Origin: Escherichia phage 172-1
Sequence record: NC_028903.1
Strand: one strand, 5' to 3'
Length of the DNA: 64,000 nt
The first letter of the stretch is position 1, and each line of letters starts with the position of its first letter. Shown in pieces: positions 51,476 to 59,464 of this stretch. Below the pieces are notes generated by a model. It was not told where the DNA came from and made no database searches. It worked only from the letters and a program-made list of their open reading frames with translations. The translations under genes were made by a program, and so were the position numbers.

Positions 51476-52213
51476 TTAAGCTTTCTTTTCCATTGCTTTA
51501 ACAATAGCTTTACAGAAACCAGAACGAACAATGTCATCTGATTCGCCGTCTACAATCTCAGCGAACTCATACAGATCATGTTCATCAATAAAGTTAGTAG
51601 CCCAAGTAAGACCACTCTCACGACCACGCATATCATGCTGGTTAGTGTCACCCATGCAGAACAATTGAGAGGTTTCTCCCAATCGAGTCATGATTGAGAA
51701 GGCTTCATCTTTAGTGGTGTTCTGGAACTCATCTACGATAACAATAGCATCGTTGAAAGAACGACCACGGAGATACTCCAGAGGTACGAACTCAATATTA
51801 CTGTTACCGAGCTGGCATTCATAGAACCCTTTACCATATCGCTGAGTAATAACATCAATGATAGGCATCAAATATGGTTCAAACTTCTCACGCATCCCTC
51901 CCGGAAGCAACCCAAGAGAATTACCCATGCCGACCGAAGGGCGACTCAGGATAATCTTCTGAATCTTACCACTCTTCAGTGCATCGATAACCGTGGAAGT
52001 GATTACAAAGGTCTTACCACAGCCCGCAGGAGCGTCTGTGAACACAACTTGTTTAGTCTTGATAGCATTGAGCAGTTCAGACTGGAACTGGTTCTGAGGG
52101 ACTACAGGCTTTGCTAAAACCACCTCTTCAAACTCGCGCTTACCCTTACGAGTGACAAGTACTTCCCGACGAAGGTCTTTCCGTGATTCTTTCCGTGATT
52201 GACGACGACTCAT
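51476..52213 (-). CDS. phoH: PhoH-like ATPase
   Basis: 245 aa; Walker A PAGCGKTF, IVDEFQN, and GDTNQ motifs. Confidence 0.8.
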   Translation of the reverse strand: MSRRQSRKESRKDLRREVLVTRKGKREFEEVVLAKPVVPQNQFQSELLNAIKTKQVVFTDAPAGCGKTFVITSTVIDALKSGKIQKIILSRPSVGMGNSLGLLPGGMREKFEPYLMPIIDVITQRYGKGFYECQLGNSNIEFVPLEYLRGRSFNDAIVIVDEFQNTTKDEAFSIMTRLGETSQLFCMGDTNQHDMRGRESGLTWATNFIDEHDLYEFAEIVDGESDDIVRSGFCKAIVKAMEKKA

Positions 52214-53157: not shown

Positions 53158-53454
53158 TTCCGCATTCTCTAAAAGTGGCAGGCATATAATCTACATCACC
53201 TTCAGATGTATGACCATAGACTTGAATAAGTTTCTTAATCTTATCCTTCTCTCTTCGAGGAAGCATTCTAAATGCCTCCTGAATATCTGTAATATGTTTT
53301 ATCTTCATCAGAAATTCCTGCTAATCCTCTGAGTTGTGGGAACAGCAATATTCACATACTCCACAACAAGGGCAAATTTCTACACTTGGGTCATATGCAT
53401 CATCAACTGTCATCCCACACTTGGTGCAGAACACATCATCATCTTCTTCCAATA

Positions 53455-54111
53455 TTAATTCTCCAAAGTTTTCTTCAGAGCTGCCCACGAGATTGGGTAG
53501 AGTTTAGCCATCTCTTCATCCAGAGATTGAGCAAACACTCGAACTTCATACTGAGCATGGGAGGATAGTCGCTGACGACACAACTCAAACCAGCCATACA
53601 AAGAACCAGTCCACACCCACTCAGTGATCATTCCCTGAGGAAGAACAAATCGGGCTTGTTCTGGTGCAACGAACTCAATCAACTTGTCATATGCTGCTAG
53701 AGAAGCTTCATATGCATCGTTAATCAACATTAATGCTTCAGCTCGCTCTCCATTGATGAGTTGAACCCCTGAACCTGCATGGAGGTCCGAAGGTCTCGCA
53801 AAAATCTCTTTAGGGATGAAGACTTCAACTGCTCCGTCTTTATACCTCCGGGACATTTCGTTCCACGAAAACCCAATTTGGTGCTTGCCCAACTGTCTCG
53901 CAATTGCGATAGGTGCTTTGCATCGGAAACTGACTTGTGGGTGTCGGAATGGAGTAACATGCTTCTCTCTTGCGAGGAAGTTGATGAGACGTTCATCACG
54001 TTCATTTAAATCACCTTCACGGGTTACGCCAAAGGAAACTCGAGCTGCGTTTACTACGCTACGATCACTTCCCATAGCTTCGATTAATGTTGCTTGTAAT
54101 TGTTCATTCAT
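53455..54111 (-). CDS. thyX: flavin-dependent thymidylate synthase ThyX homolog (variant active-site motif)
   Basis: 218 aa; recalled ThyX-like core (VVNAARVSFG, HVTPFRH, KAPIAIARQ, SHAQ); RHR-x7-S motif replaced by KHQ-x8-S. Confidence 0.7.
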   Translation of the reverse strand: MNEQLQATLIEAMGSDRSVVNAARVSFGVTREGDLNERDERLINFLAREKHVTPFRHPQVSFRCKAPIAIARQLGKHQIGFSWNEMSRRYKDGAVEVFIPKEIFARPSDLHAGSGVQLINGERAEALMLINDAYEASLAAYDKLIEFVAPEQARFVLPQGMITEWVWTGSLYGWFELCRQRLSSHAQYEVRVFAQSLDEEMAKLYPISWAALKKTLEN

Positions 54112-54126
54112 CCGTGAATTTCCTTA

Positions 54127-54336
54127 TTAATATTCTTTTACATAATAAACCACTAAGGTTCCCATCTCTGACAATGTTGATTTATGTAAGCTTACTTTAC
54201 TATAAATCTTTGGGGCCATCTTAAGAGCCTTCTTAAAACGGCGAGCATCTTTACGAGTAGCAAAGTGCTCTGTAACAGGTATAGCCGGGTCTTGGTAGAG
54301 GTAATATACCACCGTCCAATATTTTTTCATAATCAA
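54127..54336 (-). CDS. small protein, TRxxAR/YY paralog family (member 4)
   Basis: 69 aa; ATRKDARRFKKALK core and C-terminal YY-type ending. Confidence 0.45.
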   Translation of the reverse strand: MIMKKYWTVVYYLYQDPAIPVTEHFATRKDARRFKKALKMAPKIYSKVSLHKSTLSEMGTLVVYYVKEY

Positions 54337-54605
54337 ACACCTAGGGCAGTAGTTAAGAATGCTTTCAGGTTTGCTTCGGTCTGCATACCAGAGAGACTAT
54401 AGTGTGCACCACTATTACGGTCAGGTACAACGAAAGCAGGGATGCTTCTTACACCATACTTAACAGCTTGTTCACGACCATCACCTTCAAGGATGTTAAT
54501 CTCTTCTACTTCTACATCGAACTCCTTAACAACCTTCTCAAAGGTAGGAGCCATTGCTTTACATGGAGCACACTGATCACTATAAAACTTAATCACTTTA
54601 GACAT
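54333..54605 (-). CDS. thioredoxin/glutaredoxin-like protein
   Basis: Start at ATG 54603-54605 (MSKVIKFYSDQCAPCK...); CxxC active site. Confidence 0.55.
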   Translation of the reverse strand: MSKVIKFYSDQCAPCKAMAPTFEKVVKEFDVEVEEINILEGDGREQAVKYGVRSIPAFVVPDRNSGAHYSLSGMQTEANLKAFLTTALGV

Positions 54606-54795
54606 TCTATTCCTTGTTAATAAACAGGTTGATATGACGTTGGGTAGCAGGAACAACAATAAAAGATTTATACTGACCTTTTGCTAAGTCATGAGCAATC
54701 TTCTTTGTCTGACCAAGACCCATCACACAGCCACTAACAATAATGGCGTGTGCTTGCAACTCTTCAGGGAGTTTTAGTTTCATTCTTCAGGTTCC

Positions 54796-54981
54796 TTACA
54801 GCATAGCAAGAATGATAATAAGAGGTAATGTTATAGCGAAATTAATAAGAACAGCGCTGCCTAGCTTGATAGCTTTAACATCCTCTTCTGATGGGTTTTC
54901 TTTAATTGCTAAATTTCGAGCTTTATATATAACAGTACCAATTATTAACGACCACACGGCCCACACAATCAGTGAAATCAT
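54796..54981 (-). CDS. small two-TM membrane protein
   Basis: 61 aa; two hydrophobic helices. Confidence 0.4.
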   Translation of the reverse strand: MISLIVWAVWSLIIGTVIYKARNLAIKENPSEEDVKAIKLGSAVLINFAITLPLIIILAML

Positions 54982-54990
54982 ATCAAACCC

Positions 54991-55170
54991 TTATGCAGTC
55001 AGGAGGTGAAGCAGGAATGGGATAACAACAGCTACGACAACCATGATGGTTGATGCTGTTTGAATCTCACCTTTCTTGTCAGGAGTTTCTTCAATAAGCT
55101 TGCCAGAAGCCCAATAGATACCACCACCAATAAAGACAGCCCAAATACCCCATACGATTGCTGATAACAT
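54991..55170 (-). CDS. small two-TM membrane protein (paralog of 54796..54981; not in ORF track)
   Basis: 59 aa ORF found by hand (MLSAIVWGIWAVFIGGGIYWASGKLIEETPDKK...); same architecture as neighbour. Confidence 0.35.
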   Translation of the reverse strand: MLSAIVWGIWAVFIGGGIYWASGKLIEETPDKKGEIQTASTIMVVVAVVIPFLLHLLTA

Positions 55171-55231
55171 ATATCTATATCCTTATAAATAAGTTCGCCC
55201 CACCTCGGGTTAGGAGACAGGGCGGAGGTTT

Positions 55232-55795
55232 TTAGTAAGACACATCGCCACTTGAGTGGGACATGTTGCTCTTGACGAAGTAGCAATACTTGCCAAGACC
55301 TTCATTAATTTCTTGAAGCATACTCTGATCAACTGGATAAGTGGCTAAATCACCATCAAACTCATCCATCTTCTCAATAATACACATCAAGGTCATGCAC
55401 ATATCAGAGAGCATACCGTCCATATCTAGGTCAGCATTACCCTCTGAGAACCAAGCATGGGAGAGATAATTGGCTGCTGTGGCGTCCACTTTAACACAGT
55501 GGTAACGCATACGTTCAGCAATACGATCTCCTACTTGTCGTGCGTAATCTTCCAGCTCATCAAACATACCATGAACACCCTGAAATCCTGCACCAGAGAC
55601 GTTCCAATGGTAGTTTTTAGCTTTGATATGCAAGAGTTCCATGTTAGCTTGTAAGCAGCTCAGGATGTGTTCTAGGCTGTTTCCACTAATCATACCCTGC
55701 ATTGTTTCAAGGCGAGAGATTGAAAGCTCGGACCGGTCTAACATATTGTATTCGACACGACCAATATCAGGTAAATCAAAGACATTCTTATGCAT
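55232..55795 (-). CDS. dps: Dps-like ferritin (DNA-binding ferritin-like protein)
   Basis: Start at ATG 55793-55795 with GGAGAT RBS; NYHWNVSGAGFQGVH (H-x11-H) and GDRIAE (D-x3-E) match recalled Dps ferroxidase-centre spacing. Confidence 0.6.
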   Translation of the reverse strand: MHKNVFDLPDIGRVEYNMLDRSELSISRLETMQGMISGNSLEHILSCLQANMELLHIKAKNYHWNVSGAGFQGVHGMFDELEDYARQVGDRIAERMRYHCVKVDATAANYLSHAWFSEGNADLDMDGMLSDMCMTLMCIIEKMDEFDGDLATYPVDQSMLQEINEGLGKYCYFVKSNMSHSSGDVSY

Positions 55796-56117
55796 TTGGG
55801 TTATCTCCATCAAGTTCAACTGAATTAGCAACGTTACGTTCGATGTTTGCCATCACTTGCTGCGTTATGACAATACAGTTCTGTGGGTCTACTGACTTAG
55901 AACGCCCCATTTCAGGGTCATACACCTTAACTCGCTTAGCAGTTGAACCTGTAACCTGAAGAACCTTCAACAGATATCCCTGATTACCAATAGACCAAGC
56001 AACAACATCACGATTCTTGATAAAGCGACCAAGCATATCACGATGATAAAACTGTTGCATCACCTTGGATTTTGTAATCTCTTCAGTGGGCGGGGCCACT
56101 TTACTCAAATCTAACAT
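55788..56117 (-). CDS. hypothetical protein
   Basis: 109 aa; preceded by promoter motif. Confidence 0.45.
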   Translation of the reverse strand: MLDLSKVAPPTEEITKSKVMQQFYHRDMLGRFIKNRDVVAWSIGNQGYLLKVLQVTGSTAKRVKVYDPEMGRSKSVDPQNCIVITQQVMANIERNVANSVELDGDNPNA

Positions 56118-56155
56118 AACTCTCTCCTGTAAAAATACAAATTCTTATTGTACTC

Positions 56156-56188
56156 TATATACATTTGAGAGTTACCATATCTACTACC
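56156..56188 (-). promoter_or_regulatory. phage promoter (GGTAGTAG-N14-AAATGTATATA, leftward)
   Basis: Same upstream octamer and spacing as 44944..44976; 39 nt upstream of ATG 56117. Confidence 0.5.
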
Positions 56189-56190
56189 AA

Positions 56191-56400
56191 TCAGTAGTAA
56201 ACATTCCGAGATAGCATACAAGTACTTTCTGAGAATTCAACCCAACGGTGTATGCTAACATGCTCAACCGTACCGACCAGAGCTTTCATATTCTTTTTAG
56301 CAATACGAGCCTCTTTGCGAGTGTTAAACAGTTTGATATTATCTTTTCCCAAGTGTTGCTCGTGATTCCAAACAACACGAATAGCCCACATCTTTTTCAT
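56191..56400 (-). CDS. small protein, TRxxAR/YY paralog family (member 3)
   Basis: 69 aa; NTRKEARIAKKNMK core, ends VYY. Confidence 0.45.
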   Translation of the reverse strand: MKKMWAIRVVWNHEQHLGKDNIKLFNTRKEARIAKKNMKALVGTVEHVSIHRWVEFSESTCMLSRNVYY

Positions 56401-56609
56401 CAGTAGTGTACCTTTCCGCTGATATAAACACGACCAGAGGAATACTCTCTGGCCTTATGAATACTGATGCTCTTGATCATATCTATATTAAACATGGACT
56501 TTTTAAAATCTCGAGCTTGTTGGCGAGTAGGTAGTGCAGTCATAGTCATACCGCCTGATGCCCACTTAATCTTTGCTAACCAAAACTGTCTCATAGTGAT
56601 TGGTCTCAT
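56400..56609 (-). CDS. small protein, TRxxAR/YY paralog family (member 2)
   Basis: 69 aa; PTRQQARDFKKSMF core, ends VHY. Confidence 0.45.
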   Translation of the reverse strand: MRPITMRQFWLAKIKWASGGMTMTALPTRQQARDFKKSMFNIDMIKSISIHKAREYSSGRVYISGKVHY

Positions 56610-56806
56610 TAATAATAAACCTTGCTGTTGGCAAAAAGAGCACCTTCGTTATTCACAATAGCTTTTCCTATTGTAACCTTATTGAGTCTAAAAGTAGACT
56701 TGTATTGGTTTTTGACCCTACGGGCGTGTTCTCGAGTATTAACAAAATCTACAGCTACTAACTCTCCAGTCGTGTTATCATGTACACGAACAATCCACTT
56801 TTTCAT
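56609..56806 (-). CDS. small protein, TRxxAR/YY paralog family (member 1)
   Basis: 65 aa; NTREHARRVKNQYK core, ends VYY. Confidence 0.45.
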   Translation of the reverse strand: MKKWIVRVHDNTTGELVAVDFVNTREHARRVKNQYKSTFRLNKVTIGKAIVNNEGALFANSKVYY

Positions 56807-57009
56807 TTTACTAAACCCTTCATAAAGTTATAAAGATCATTAGAGGCTTTACCCCATTCAAGGTGCTTCTTATCCATATAGCTCTTACATGCTTCTTTAC
56901 TACTTTCGACGCATATATCAAATTGATGACATGCTCGACCAAATGTCATAGCTTTTAATTGAACCTCGGTAGTCAAACCTTTCAGTTCTTGGAACTCTTC
57001 TTCAGTCAT
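56803..57009 (-). CDS. hypothetical protein
   Basis: 68 aa. Confidence 0.35.
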   Translation of the reverse strand: MTEEEFQELKGLTTEVQLKAMTFGRACHQFDICVESSKEACKSYMDKKHLEWGKASNDLYNFMKGLVK

Positions 57010-57543
57010 TTACACACCCTTAGATGCAACAACACCTTCAGAGTTATTATAACGACCCTTCACTGCATAGGAATGTTCCCCTGCATGAGAGTGCTCAAAC
57101 ATCACCATCTGACCAACACGCATACCAGCACGAACTCGTAAGCTATGATGCTTGGTTACGTTGTGGAATTCAAACGTCAGCTTACTGCTATTAAATCCAG
57201 CATCAGCCCATCCAGCATGTAGGTGGTTCAAACCACAACGAGCCATAGATGAACGAAGAACAAACAGGCTTGAGATATTATCTGGAAGATTAAACTCCTC
57301 CATGGAGTGAGCCAAGAAGAACTGACCCGGAGTGATAACCAAACCCTCTTCAGGAATCTTTACTTCCTTCCACTGAAGATTTTCTTTCGCATCAATATCA
57401 ACGATGCCATCAGCCTGTTCTTCAACAAGGATAGTATCACCAATACGGATATCCACACTAGCAGCGTTAACATACTTATGCTCCGCATCCAGATAGCCAT
57501 TGTCAATTACATCGTGCAGTTCAACACTTCCTAGTAAACTCAT
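57010..57543 (-). CDS. dcd: dCTP deaminase (dUTPase-fold)
   Basis: 177 aa; ASVDIRIG, RSSMARCGL, AGWADAGF and YNNSEGVVASK align with the recalled E. coli Dcd sequence. Confidence 0.7.
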   Translation of the reverse strand: MSLLGSVELHDVIDNGYLDAEHKYVNAASVDIRIGDTILVEEQADGIVDIDAKENLQWKEVKIPEEGLVITPGQFFLAHSMEEFNLPDNISSLFVLRSSMARCGLNHLHAGWADAGFNSSKLTFEFHNVTKHHSLRVRAGMRVGQMVMFEHSHAGEHSYAVKGRYNNSEGVVASKGV

Positions 57544-57552
57544 TCTTATTCC

Positions 57553-58908
57553 TTAGTTATTTGTTTCCATGTCAAAAGAGATTCCACGACCCGCTTCATC
57601 GGCAAACCGAACTGTACGGGTTTGAGGCTGCAATACTTCAGGGTTATCAGCAACAAAGCGATCAGCGAGACTGCGGCTGACGGTCTCAGCTAATTCACCA
57701 TGAGAAGGGATATTAAGATCGGCGAGATTATCAACCACATCTTGGGCCACGTCTTCATCAGTCCATACAGCCCTAACAGGTGCGTTGAAACTCTGACCAG
57801 AGAACTGGTGACGGCTAACAGTCAAACCATTTGATTGACCATTAGAACGTCTAGACAACCACTGCTCAAATGAATCGCCAGTAACACCAAGAGCTTCTTC
57901 AAAAGATGTTCTACGAGTAGAGCTTAGATTTCGTGCTTCGTTTGCTCGACGTCTTGCAGGGGCTACAAACACCCCTTCAACTGCATTGTGCCGATTAGGT
58001 TCATCTTCTCGACCAAGGAGATCTCCTCCTGTATTAGTTGTTAAGTTTGTCAACCCTTCAGACCAATATGCACGAATCTGGCTAGAGCCATGAACACTTG
58101 ACATTAACTGAATCTCTTCGTAAGGTATTCCAAAGAATAGACTCATGTCTCGGTTAACACAGTATTGAGCACTTGTTGTATCCTCAATAAGAGAAACCTG
58201 ACCTAATCCATTAACCAGATGACTAACTGGCTGAGGTGTAGGAAGGTATCGAGTTTGGGCCATATATTGATATGCAACAGATGGAGCTGAGAATCTTAAC
58301 ACTTGTGAATTAGGCCACTTTTTGTGAACGTATCTGATTTCACGACTAGAAACAACCACAGGGCAAGGAGCGGTCATAGCTAAATATCCATGAGGAGTCA
58401 TGAATAGGTTGTCAAGAGTCATCGCACCACGGCACATCATAGGAAAATTATCCAATACCTCTTCAATAGAAGTAGGATAATTAAACATGAATTGAATGCG
58501 GGTTCCATTCCACTGAAACTCAATAATATCAGTGAATGTTAATTGAGAACCCCCAGCATATGATTCGTTTGTAGCTTCAGCAAGAAGGGATGCATACTCG
58601 ATATCTTGTGATTCAAGCCACTCTTTCACATTGCTTTCAATCTCTCGTCCAAGAGCTTGCCAATGATCAACTGTAGTGAAAGTATTTTGAGTCCCTGGCG
58701 TCTGTCCTCTGACAACGAAGATATCAATATCGTGAGGTGCTATGTTATTAAGCACGGCATCACGAACAGCCCCACCAGTAATGATAGGGCAAATGCCGTC
58801 TGGAATCAAGTTGTTGTTAATCAACTGTTCAATGAAGTGACGACCAACAGTGATATCAGGTTGTTGAGCAACCTTATCTTCAATTCGGTTAATCGGGATA
58901 ACAATCAT
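57553..58908 (-). CDS. nucleotidyltransferase, tRNA-NT/poly(A) polymerase head-domain family
   Basis: Start at ATG 58906-58908; ITGGAVRDAVLNNIAPHDIDIFV = GGxVRD...DxD pol-beta signature; C-terminal ~300 aa unrecognised. Confidence 0.55.
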   Translation of the reverse strand: MIVIPINRIEDKVAQQPDITVGRHFIEQLINNNLIPDGICPIITGGAVRDAVLNNIAPHDIDIFVVRGQTPGTQNTFTTVDHWQALGREIESNVKEWLESQDIEYASLLAEATNESYAGGSQLTFTDIIEFQWNGTRIQFMFNYPTSIEEVLDNFPMMCRGAMTLDNLFMTPHGYLAMTAPCPVVVSSREIRYVHKKWPNSQVLRFSAPSVAYQYMAQTRYLPTPQPVSHLVNGLGQVSLIEDTTSAQYCVNRDMSLFFGIPYEEIQLMSSVHGSSQIRAYWSEGLTNLTTNTGGDLLGREDEPNRHNAVEGVFVAPARRRANEARNLSSTRRTSFEEALGVTGDSFEQWLSRRSNGQSNGLTVSRHQFSGQSFNAPVRAVWTDEDVAQDVVDNLADLNIPSHGELAETVSRSLADRFVADNPEVLQPQTRTVRFADEAGRGISFDMETNN

Positions 58909-58909
58909 T

Positions 58910-59464
58910 TTACATTTTCCAATATAATGAAGGTGGGTCGTAAGGGTCAAATCCCGTGAGTTCACACAAGTATTTATAAACCTTAACGGTTAAGTTAACG
59001 TCCTGTTCACAGTAAGTAAACATATCTTCAGTGAAAGCATCCCATGCTTCCTCTTGCTCACCGTAGTCTCCTTTAAGTTCCTCTAAGAACTCACCCCATT
59101 GCTTCAAACCATGACCTCTTGGGCCATGTCTAGGGTCACCTTTCGGATACTCAGGACTGTCACCAATACGGTCAGGTTTAAGATATCGACTAAGACACAA
59201 GGTGTCGAAGACGTTAAAACGATAGTCGATCAGATTGGGATACATCTTCTTCAGAGCACAAAGGTCGAAGTCAATAATATTATGACCTACGAGCACATCA
59301 GCTTCTGTAAGTTTACGAATCCCATCTTCAATTTGGTGAGGCCGATAGCCCCACCTTTCACCAGTTTCAACATCGAAGATGTAAATACACCACACTTTAG
59401 TTATGTCATCGTACAGTGCATTACTCTCGATATCAAATGCAAACACTTTCTTTTTCTTTACCAC
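58910..59464 (-). CDS. DnaQ-like 3'-5' exonuclease (stand-alone proofreading domain)
   Basis: 184 aa; Exo I FDIES, Exo II HNIIDFD, Exo III YCEQDV motifs. Confidence 0.7.

Follow-up and report, generated by a model that had tools for sequence, protein, structure and literature searches.

The phiEco32-like podophages encode small proteins of a family which has already been catalogued, as phrog_4939 ("unknown function"), and annotated in about 100 deposited phage genomes, and which has no known function. In phiEco32 the family includes gp69, gp70 and gp71, and in Escherichia phage NJ01 it includes NJ01_076, NJ01_083, NJ01_084 and NJ01_085. Deposited records, that of NJ01 among them, label the genes "hypothetical protein"; NJ01_076, a protein of 67 amino acids (aa), was deposited as a "putative ABC transporter", a label that looks wrong. 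With regard to transcription, P68 of phiEco32 ('aAATGTATA') has been reported as a promoter for the phage sigma factor gp36 (PMC8948821 Table S3), and the authors of the SU10 study assigned, by homology to phiEco32, coding sequences (CDS) 69-125, and hence the homologues of three of the genes treated below (A to C), to an early class and CDS25-68 to a middle class. The present analysis concerns a 64,000-nucleotide (nt) stretch of Escherichia phage 172-1 (sequence record NC_028903.1; hereafter the window), in which an earlier note, made from the letters alone, had described four open reading frames (ORFs), here termed A, B, C and D, as paralogues of a single family. The window is that of a Kuravirus, a phiEco32-like podophage; its region 53400-57600 is 97.3% identical to NJ01 and is matched by 97 deposited phage records, the hosts of which are nearly all Escherichia or Shigella, and the matching records with taxonomy checked belong to the Gordonclarkvirinae, mostly to Kuravirus (phiEco32-like podophages with elongated heads).

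The four ORFs lie where the earlier note had placed them, all on the minus strand, and it is near certain that they are real, homologous, selected genes. Pairwise Smith-Waterman z-scores among the four copies range from 6.1 to 11.8, and for no pair did a shuffled sequence (0/1000) score as high as the real one. The match to phrog_4939 extends over the full length of each protein (profile positions 1-67), with E values of 6.7e-28 for A, 6.2e-28 for B, 1e-27 for C and 9.5e-26 for D, and the same profile is matched by all 67 aligned relatives. The four are also built like members of that family, being stand-alone proteins of about 64-79 aa with a conserved W5, a T-R-x-x-A-R-x-x-K motif and a C-terminal Tyr; their core motifs (NTREHARRVKN, PTRQQARDFKK, NTRKEARIAKK and ATRKDARRFKK) and C-termini (VYY, VHY, VYY and KEY) agree with those originally quoted. 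When the six-frame translation of the window was searched with a hidden Markov model (HMM) of the family, exactly these four were returned (E 1e-26 to 1e-33, the next best at E=1.5), making them its sole copies. The view that the family could not be recognised held: scans of the four proteins against Pfam, NCBIfam and PADLOC gave nothing meaningful (for PADLOC, none at E up to 1), a Pfam scan of all 67 relatives likewise gave no meaningful match, and the PDB yielded none, but the proteins belong to a family that had already been catalogued.

Structure prediction, which had been proposed together with profile searches, gave confident AlphaFold2 models from family alignments for C (predicted local distance difference test score, pLDDT, 87; predicted template modelling score, pTM, 0.71) and for D (pLDDT 94, pTM 0.80). 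Both models contain, in the same order, a β1-β2 hairpin, one helix of about 12 residues and a β3-β4 hairpin. Foldseek found no match in the PDB better than E 0.086, and the predicted fold is a simple two-layer α/β unit without a demonstrable relative of known function. Numbered as in paralogue C and counted over the 67 aligned sequences, the most conserved positions are W5, K/R8, T27, R28, A31, R32, K35, K36, L/M38, K39, V48, T/S49, I50, H51 (Gly in group A), K/R52, G59, K66, V67 and the terminal Y69, among which W5, R28 and R32 are invariant and T27, A31, K35 and Y69 are retained in 87% or more of the sequences. All 67 members are basic, with isoelectric points (pI) of 9.5-11.1 and conserved cationic positions at K2, K/R8, R28, R32, K35, K36, K39, K/R52 and K66, and aromatic residues are abundant in them (9-13 F/W/Y/H in roughly 66 residues). 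When the helix is drawn as a wheel, R28, R32, K35, K36 and K39 form one stripe (resultant 0.83), which lies about 110 degrees from an apolar face made of A31, x34 and L38; this face should pack on the sheet, and the basic stripe is probably exposed because the apolar face is so far removed from it. Variation within orthogroups sits in the tip of the β1-β2 hairpin, the helix-β3 linker and the β3-β4 hairpin, with the helix motif remaining invariant.

A, B and C are directly tandem, as had been proposed, with 1-nt stop/start overlaps (TAATG at A/B and TGATG at B/C), and the ATG of A overlaps the stop codon of an upstream 68-aa ORF (ATGA). A Shine-Dalgarno-like AAGG stands about 11 nt before each start, inside the Lys-Val codons of the preceding copy. 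The overlaps together with this AAGG fit translational coupling and the duplication of a unit that brings its own ribosome-binding site; the copies share no nucleotide-level repeats besides the stop/start junction, and the duplications are therefore old. Paralogue D occupies a slot between the thioredoxin gene and thyX, 15 nt before the thyX start codon. It most likely starts at the ATG at 54330 (MKKYW, 67 aa) rather than at the TTG at 54336, in agreement with the NJ01 and Paul annotations, and B may start at the internal ATG at 56594 (MRQFW, 64 aa), as many orthologues begin with MKKFW or MRQFW. The homologue of the P68 motif found after C separates A, B and C, in the upstream unit, from D, in the P68 unit, and no other exact copy of the core promoter motif occurs upstream on the minus strand within the window; the upstream unit therefore appears to end with A, B and C. 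Judged by promoter position and the published classes, A to C appear to belong to an early unit and D to the middle unit, that of P68. In the window the core of the motif for gp36-sigma promoters, AATGTATA, occurs 8 times, against 2.8 expected and with 0/100 shuffles reaching 8, at positions 2057, 18572, 30205, 35439, 44894, 44967, 51456 and 56158; its orientation switches with the gene clusters, in keeping with the late and middle promoters published for phages of the phiEco32 type.

Members of the family occur only in phiEco32-like and 7-11-like phages. When 5.8 billion proteins were searched with a profile, 103 were returned, with lengths of 48-87 aa (64-73 aa in nearly every case); no Pfam domain was present in any of them, and all fall into the four orthogroups. 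An exhaustive HMMER search of 1.84 billion cluster representatives gave 30 clusters at E<1e-3, all single-domain and of 47-79 aa. A second, broader profile search returned nothing from E 1e-8 to E 5, nor any match with a Pfam annotation, which marks the family as small and as isolated in sequence space. In a viral structure library the significant matches came from phages of Escherichia, Aeromonas and Salmonella and were uncharacterised proteins, followed by Cronobacter just outside (E 3e-3), and a tblastn search with distant members against cultured phages added just kuraviruses and two 7-11-like phages (Salmonella/other).

Copy number across genomes ranges from 1 to 4. Four copies are present in the window, NJ01 and Paul; three in phiEco32 and EP335 (A, B and C) and in ECBP2, MLP3 and EcoN5 (B, C and a D-type copy, without A); three or four, counting one weak member in a fifth slot, in the 71-kb metagenomic contig L008; two in Salmonella phage PKM.Hi.22.6 (Grimontviridae); and at least one in a distant contig, L006. 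B and C are present and adjacent in all of the Gordonclarkvirinae loci examined (13/13), almost always with the 1-nt overlap, and thus form a conserved core pair, A and D being dispensable; B has also been listed as a core gene of the phiEco32 subgroup (PMC8948821 Table S2). The slot of D stands empty in phiEco32, phiEc_1 and IMEP8, and divergent alleles fill it elsewhere. Two positions recur, one after the dCTP deaminase gene and before the genes for the 109-aa and Dps-like proteins, and the other immediately 5' of thyX, the latter being occupied also in metagenomic contigs L008 and L010 and in PKM.Hi.22.6. In relatives, HNH endonuclease genes or unrelated small ORFs are found in family slots. 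The weak fifth-slot member of the kuravirus-like L008 (7514-7714, E 1.7e-3, 66 aa, ending in KIYY) lies between a membrane-protein gene and the thioredoxin gene, where the window holds unrelated small ORFs.

All four orthogroups are under purifying selection. The pairwise Nei-Gojobori ratio of nonsynonymous to synonymous substitution rates (dN/dS), calculated over 5-8 genomes, is 0.21 for A, 0.27 for B, 0.28 for C and 0.30 for D, and none of the genomes and metagenomic contigs examined has a broken reading frame. Paralogue C is nevertheless a divergence hotspot and the most variable always-present gene of the region (Table 1). An island of divergence from NJ01 takes in the greater part of gene C together with the 3' half of gene B; in the approximately 9 kb around it, identity is mostly 99-100%, a few far shallower dips to 84-96% apart. 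Some C alleles carry a B-like end, "GSYISGDVHY", which suggests exchange between paralogues.

Table 1. Features of the array and its surroundings in the window. Identities are mean protein identities across ten Kuravirus genomes, with the window copy as reference.
Feature	Position	Strand	Remarks	Mean identity
PhoH	51476..52213	-
ThyX	53455..54111	-		96%
Paralogue D	54127..54336	-	67 aa from probable start ATG 54330; orthologue of NJ01_076, Paul gp066	86% (range 52-100%); absent in three genomes
Thioredoxin (Trx)	54333..54605	-		99%
Small predicted membrane protein	54796..54981	-	61 aa
Small predicted membrane protein	54991..55170	-	59 aa
Dps/ferritin-like protein	about 55232..55795	-		98%
Conserved 109-aa protein	55788..56117	-		97%
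aAATGTATA promoter motif (P68 homologue)	56158..56166	-	Motif search; 25 nt past C stop, upstream of 109-aa gene
Paralogue C	56191..56400	-	69 aa; orthologue of phi32_69, NJ01_083	68% (range 58-96%)
Divergence island versus NJ01	56200..56500	-	49-88% nucleotide identity; sliding 100-nt profile
Paralogue B	56400..56609	-	69 aa from ATG 56609, or 64 aa from ATG 56594; orthologue of phi32_70, NJ01_084	89%
Paralogue A	56609..56806	-	65 aa; orthologue of phi32_71, NJ01_085	92%; absent in one genome
Acidic ORF	56803..57009	-	68 aa
dCTP deaminase (Dcd)	57010..57543	-		95%
CCA-adding-type nucleotidyltransferase	57553..58908	-

The explanation tentatively preferred here, to which we give only limited confidence, is that these are accessory, small basic proteins which use the invariant helix to bind a polyanion, with nucleic acid the most likely one, and the hairpins to set specificity. 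The four copies would have arisen by old tandem duplications within the phiEco32-like phages and then diverged; expression of A, B and C would be translationally coupled and would come at the end of a long early unit, directly after dCTP deaminase, and that of D would be from the next, middle (P68) unit, just ahead of ThyX. The T-R-x-x-A-R-x-x-K-K helix, together with conserved Lys/Arg residues on strands 1 and 3, would grip the polyanionic ligand, most likely nucleic acid, and the variable hairpin tips would decide the target or partner of each paralogue. This binding mechanism is supported by the high pI, the basic stripe on one face, the richness in aromatic residues and the confinement of variation to the hairpins and linker. 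That A and D can be dispensed with, and that alleles of C and D turn over rapidly, suggests an accessory task that depends on the host, not a central step in nucleotide synthesis; the fast variation of C and D points to a role in host interaction at least as much as in nucleotide metabolism. The hint of nucleic-acid binding in the earlier note, based on the basic central motif, is compatible with the charge of the family and its one-face R/K stripe, but several observations weigh against the explanation. No known nucleic-acid-binding domain matches the fold, acidic proteins are another possible ligand of a basic surface, and the part played by the invariant Arg residues, by W5 and by the terminal Tyr could be structural alone, cation-π contacts or a salt bridge with the C-terminal carboxylate being examples. 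Furthermore, no family member was among the 34 proteins detected by mass spectrometry of an SU10 virion preparation, which did detect the neighbouring Dps-like, thioredoxin and 109-aa proteins.

Nearly as likely, and overlapping with polyanion binding, is the possibility that the proteins are host-takeover or counter-defence factors aimed at proteins, each paralogue binding and modulating a different host protein or variant of a defence protein; the variable hairpins may then form the recognition surface, and the basic helix may meet an acidic patch on the target. Copy number that varies, slots that are sometimes empty and, in relatives, filled by HNH endonucleases and unrelated small ORFs, the far faster evolution of C and D than of their neighbours with a recombination-like island, and the B-like C-terminus of some C alleles, suggestive of paralogue exchange, would all be accommodated in this way. 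However, the same set of Arg and Lys residues is invariant across paralogues and distant phages, which is not expected if every copy had an unrelated protein target; in addition, no group reaches a dN/dS of 1, conservation is fairly high for B and A, and no PADLOC match was obtained, although PADLOC covers defence rather than anti-defence proteins.

More speculative, and on balance unlikely, is the proposal that the family represents a new class in which a conserved basic helix is combined with two hypervariable hairpins, on a fold without a characterised relative, in a phage-host arms race, the paralogues covering different host variants. Such proteins would, for example, shield or sequester transfer RNA (tRNA), an immune signalling nucleotide or phage DNA ends, or would block a defence protein. 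It is improbable that the proteins serve as accessory subunits, assembly factors or regulators of ThyX and dCTP deaminase in dTTP synthesis, for instance by tethering these enzymes into a complex or to replicating DNA. A member does lie 14-15 nt 5' of thyX in the window, L008, L010 and PKM.Hi.22.6, and the other conserved slot is directly after dCTP deaminase and coupled to it in translation, yet phiEco32, phiEc_1, IMEP8 and EP335 retain ThyX without an adjoining copy, and copies and alleles of the family vary while ThyX and Dcd stay highly conserved. Moreover, all of the phages compared are relatives, so that the shared gene order may simply be inherited. To our knowledge, no comparable partner protein of ThyX or Dcd has been described. 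That the ORFs are non-functional, as chance frames or decaying duplicates, is effectively excluded: no direct expression data were found, but all four orthogroups show dN/dS of 0.21-0.30 and intact frames, the structure predictions for C and D are confident, the coding arrangement is compact and overlapping with Shine-Dalgarno-like sequences, and conservation spans two phage families.

The array is embedded among nucleotide-metabolism genes, as had been remarked, and the flanking genes are all on the minus strand; besides ThyX, thioredoxin, the Dps/ferritin-like protein, dCTP deaminase and the nucleotidyltransferase, a DNA polymerase exonuclease subunit is encoded in this neighbourhood. Some deposited labels are doubtful as well: several records call the Dps/ferritin-like protein an 'integrase', and an ORF of 66 aa is labelled 'isoleucyl-tRNA synthetase'. 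The acidic ORF between dCTP deaminase and paralogue A is translationally coupled, has no family match, and occurs in some kuraviruses only, not in phiEco32. Two tandem small predicted membrane proteins are paralogues of each other (33% identical, BLASTP E 6e-11), unrelated to the array family, and several relatives have a single copy only. The nucleotidyltransferase, taken over 57553..58965 on the minus strand, is comparatively variable (79-96% identity within the genus, 31-35% between genera) and carries its own island of divergence from NJ01, especially at 58000-58300. Homing-type HNH endonuclease genes of relatives have varied insertion points around the dCTP deaminase, thyX and Dps-like genes (L014 2315-2824; L015 5352-5834; L020 2124-2615 and 4292-4786; L008 5367-5876), and an ORF of ECBP2 (L013 5804-6271), annotated just as hypothetical, occupies an equivalent position; none of these HNH insertions is present in the stretch of the window around the array. 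Across the whole 64-kb window the GC skew reverses its sign at about 10 kb and at about 40 kb, in line with the divergent transcription of the late and the early/middle gene clusters, and neither tRNA genes nor Rfam families were detected.

A function, if found, would annotate a set of genes that is present in 1-4 copies across the Gordonclarkvirinae loci examined and in 7-11-like relatives, in phages which are under study as therapy against pathogenic E. coli. Since C and D turn over fast in otherwise identical genomes, they are reasonable candidates for determinants of host range or counter-defence. No paper discussing the family was found in the literature covered, which did not include the two primary phiEco32 papers, and in that literature the paralogy itself, the pairing of B and C as a core and the character of C and D as hotspots seem undescribed.

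Several known families were considered as possible relatives. Pfam DUF2188 (PF09954), which resembles the family in its W-x-V ... T-K-x-x-A ... I-H pattern, matched none of the 67 members at E up to 10. The likeness to the RNA recognition motif (RRM) is a local one, a strand-to-helix 'F-x-T-R-x-x-A' pattern shared with the CELF1 RRMs (β3-α2, E ~0.1 in a PDB sequence-profile search), and both have an aromatic-rich sheet and a basic character. The family topology is, however, β-β-α-β-β, whereas that of the RRM is β-α-β-β-α-β; no Pfam RRM match was obtained, and the family is not a member. Small phage modulators such as the T4 Dmd antitoxin and phi29-type p56 scored at noise level, with no sequence similarity, so that membership is unsupported; p56 is an acidic DNA mimic, and the charge of the present family is the opposite. 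The result is a description of a catalogued, uncharacterised family and not of a new kind of system; the window proteins are 59-100% identical to those already deposited, and the findings place the family neither inside nor outside any known functional class. Compared with NJ01_076, NJ01_083, NJ01_084 and NJ01_085, the window has A and D proteins that are 100% identical and a C allele that is 59% identical, and compared with gp69, gp70 and gp71 of phiEco32 it has four copies instead of three, with no difference in kind.

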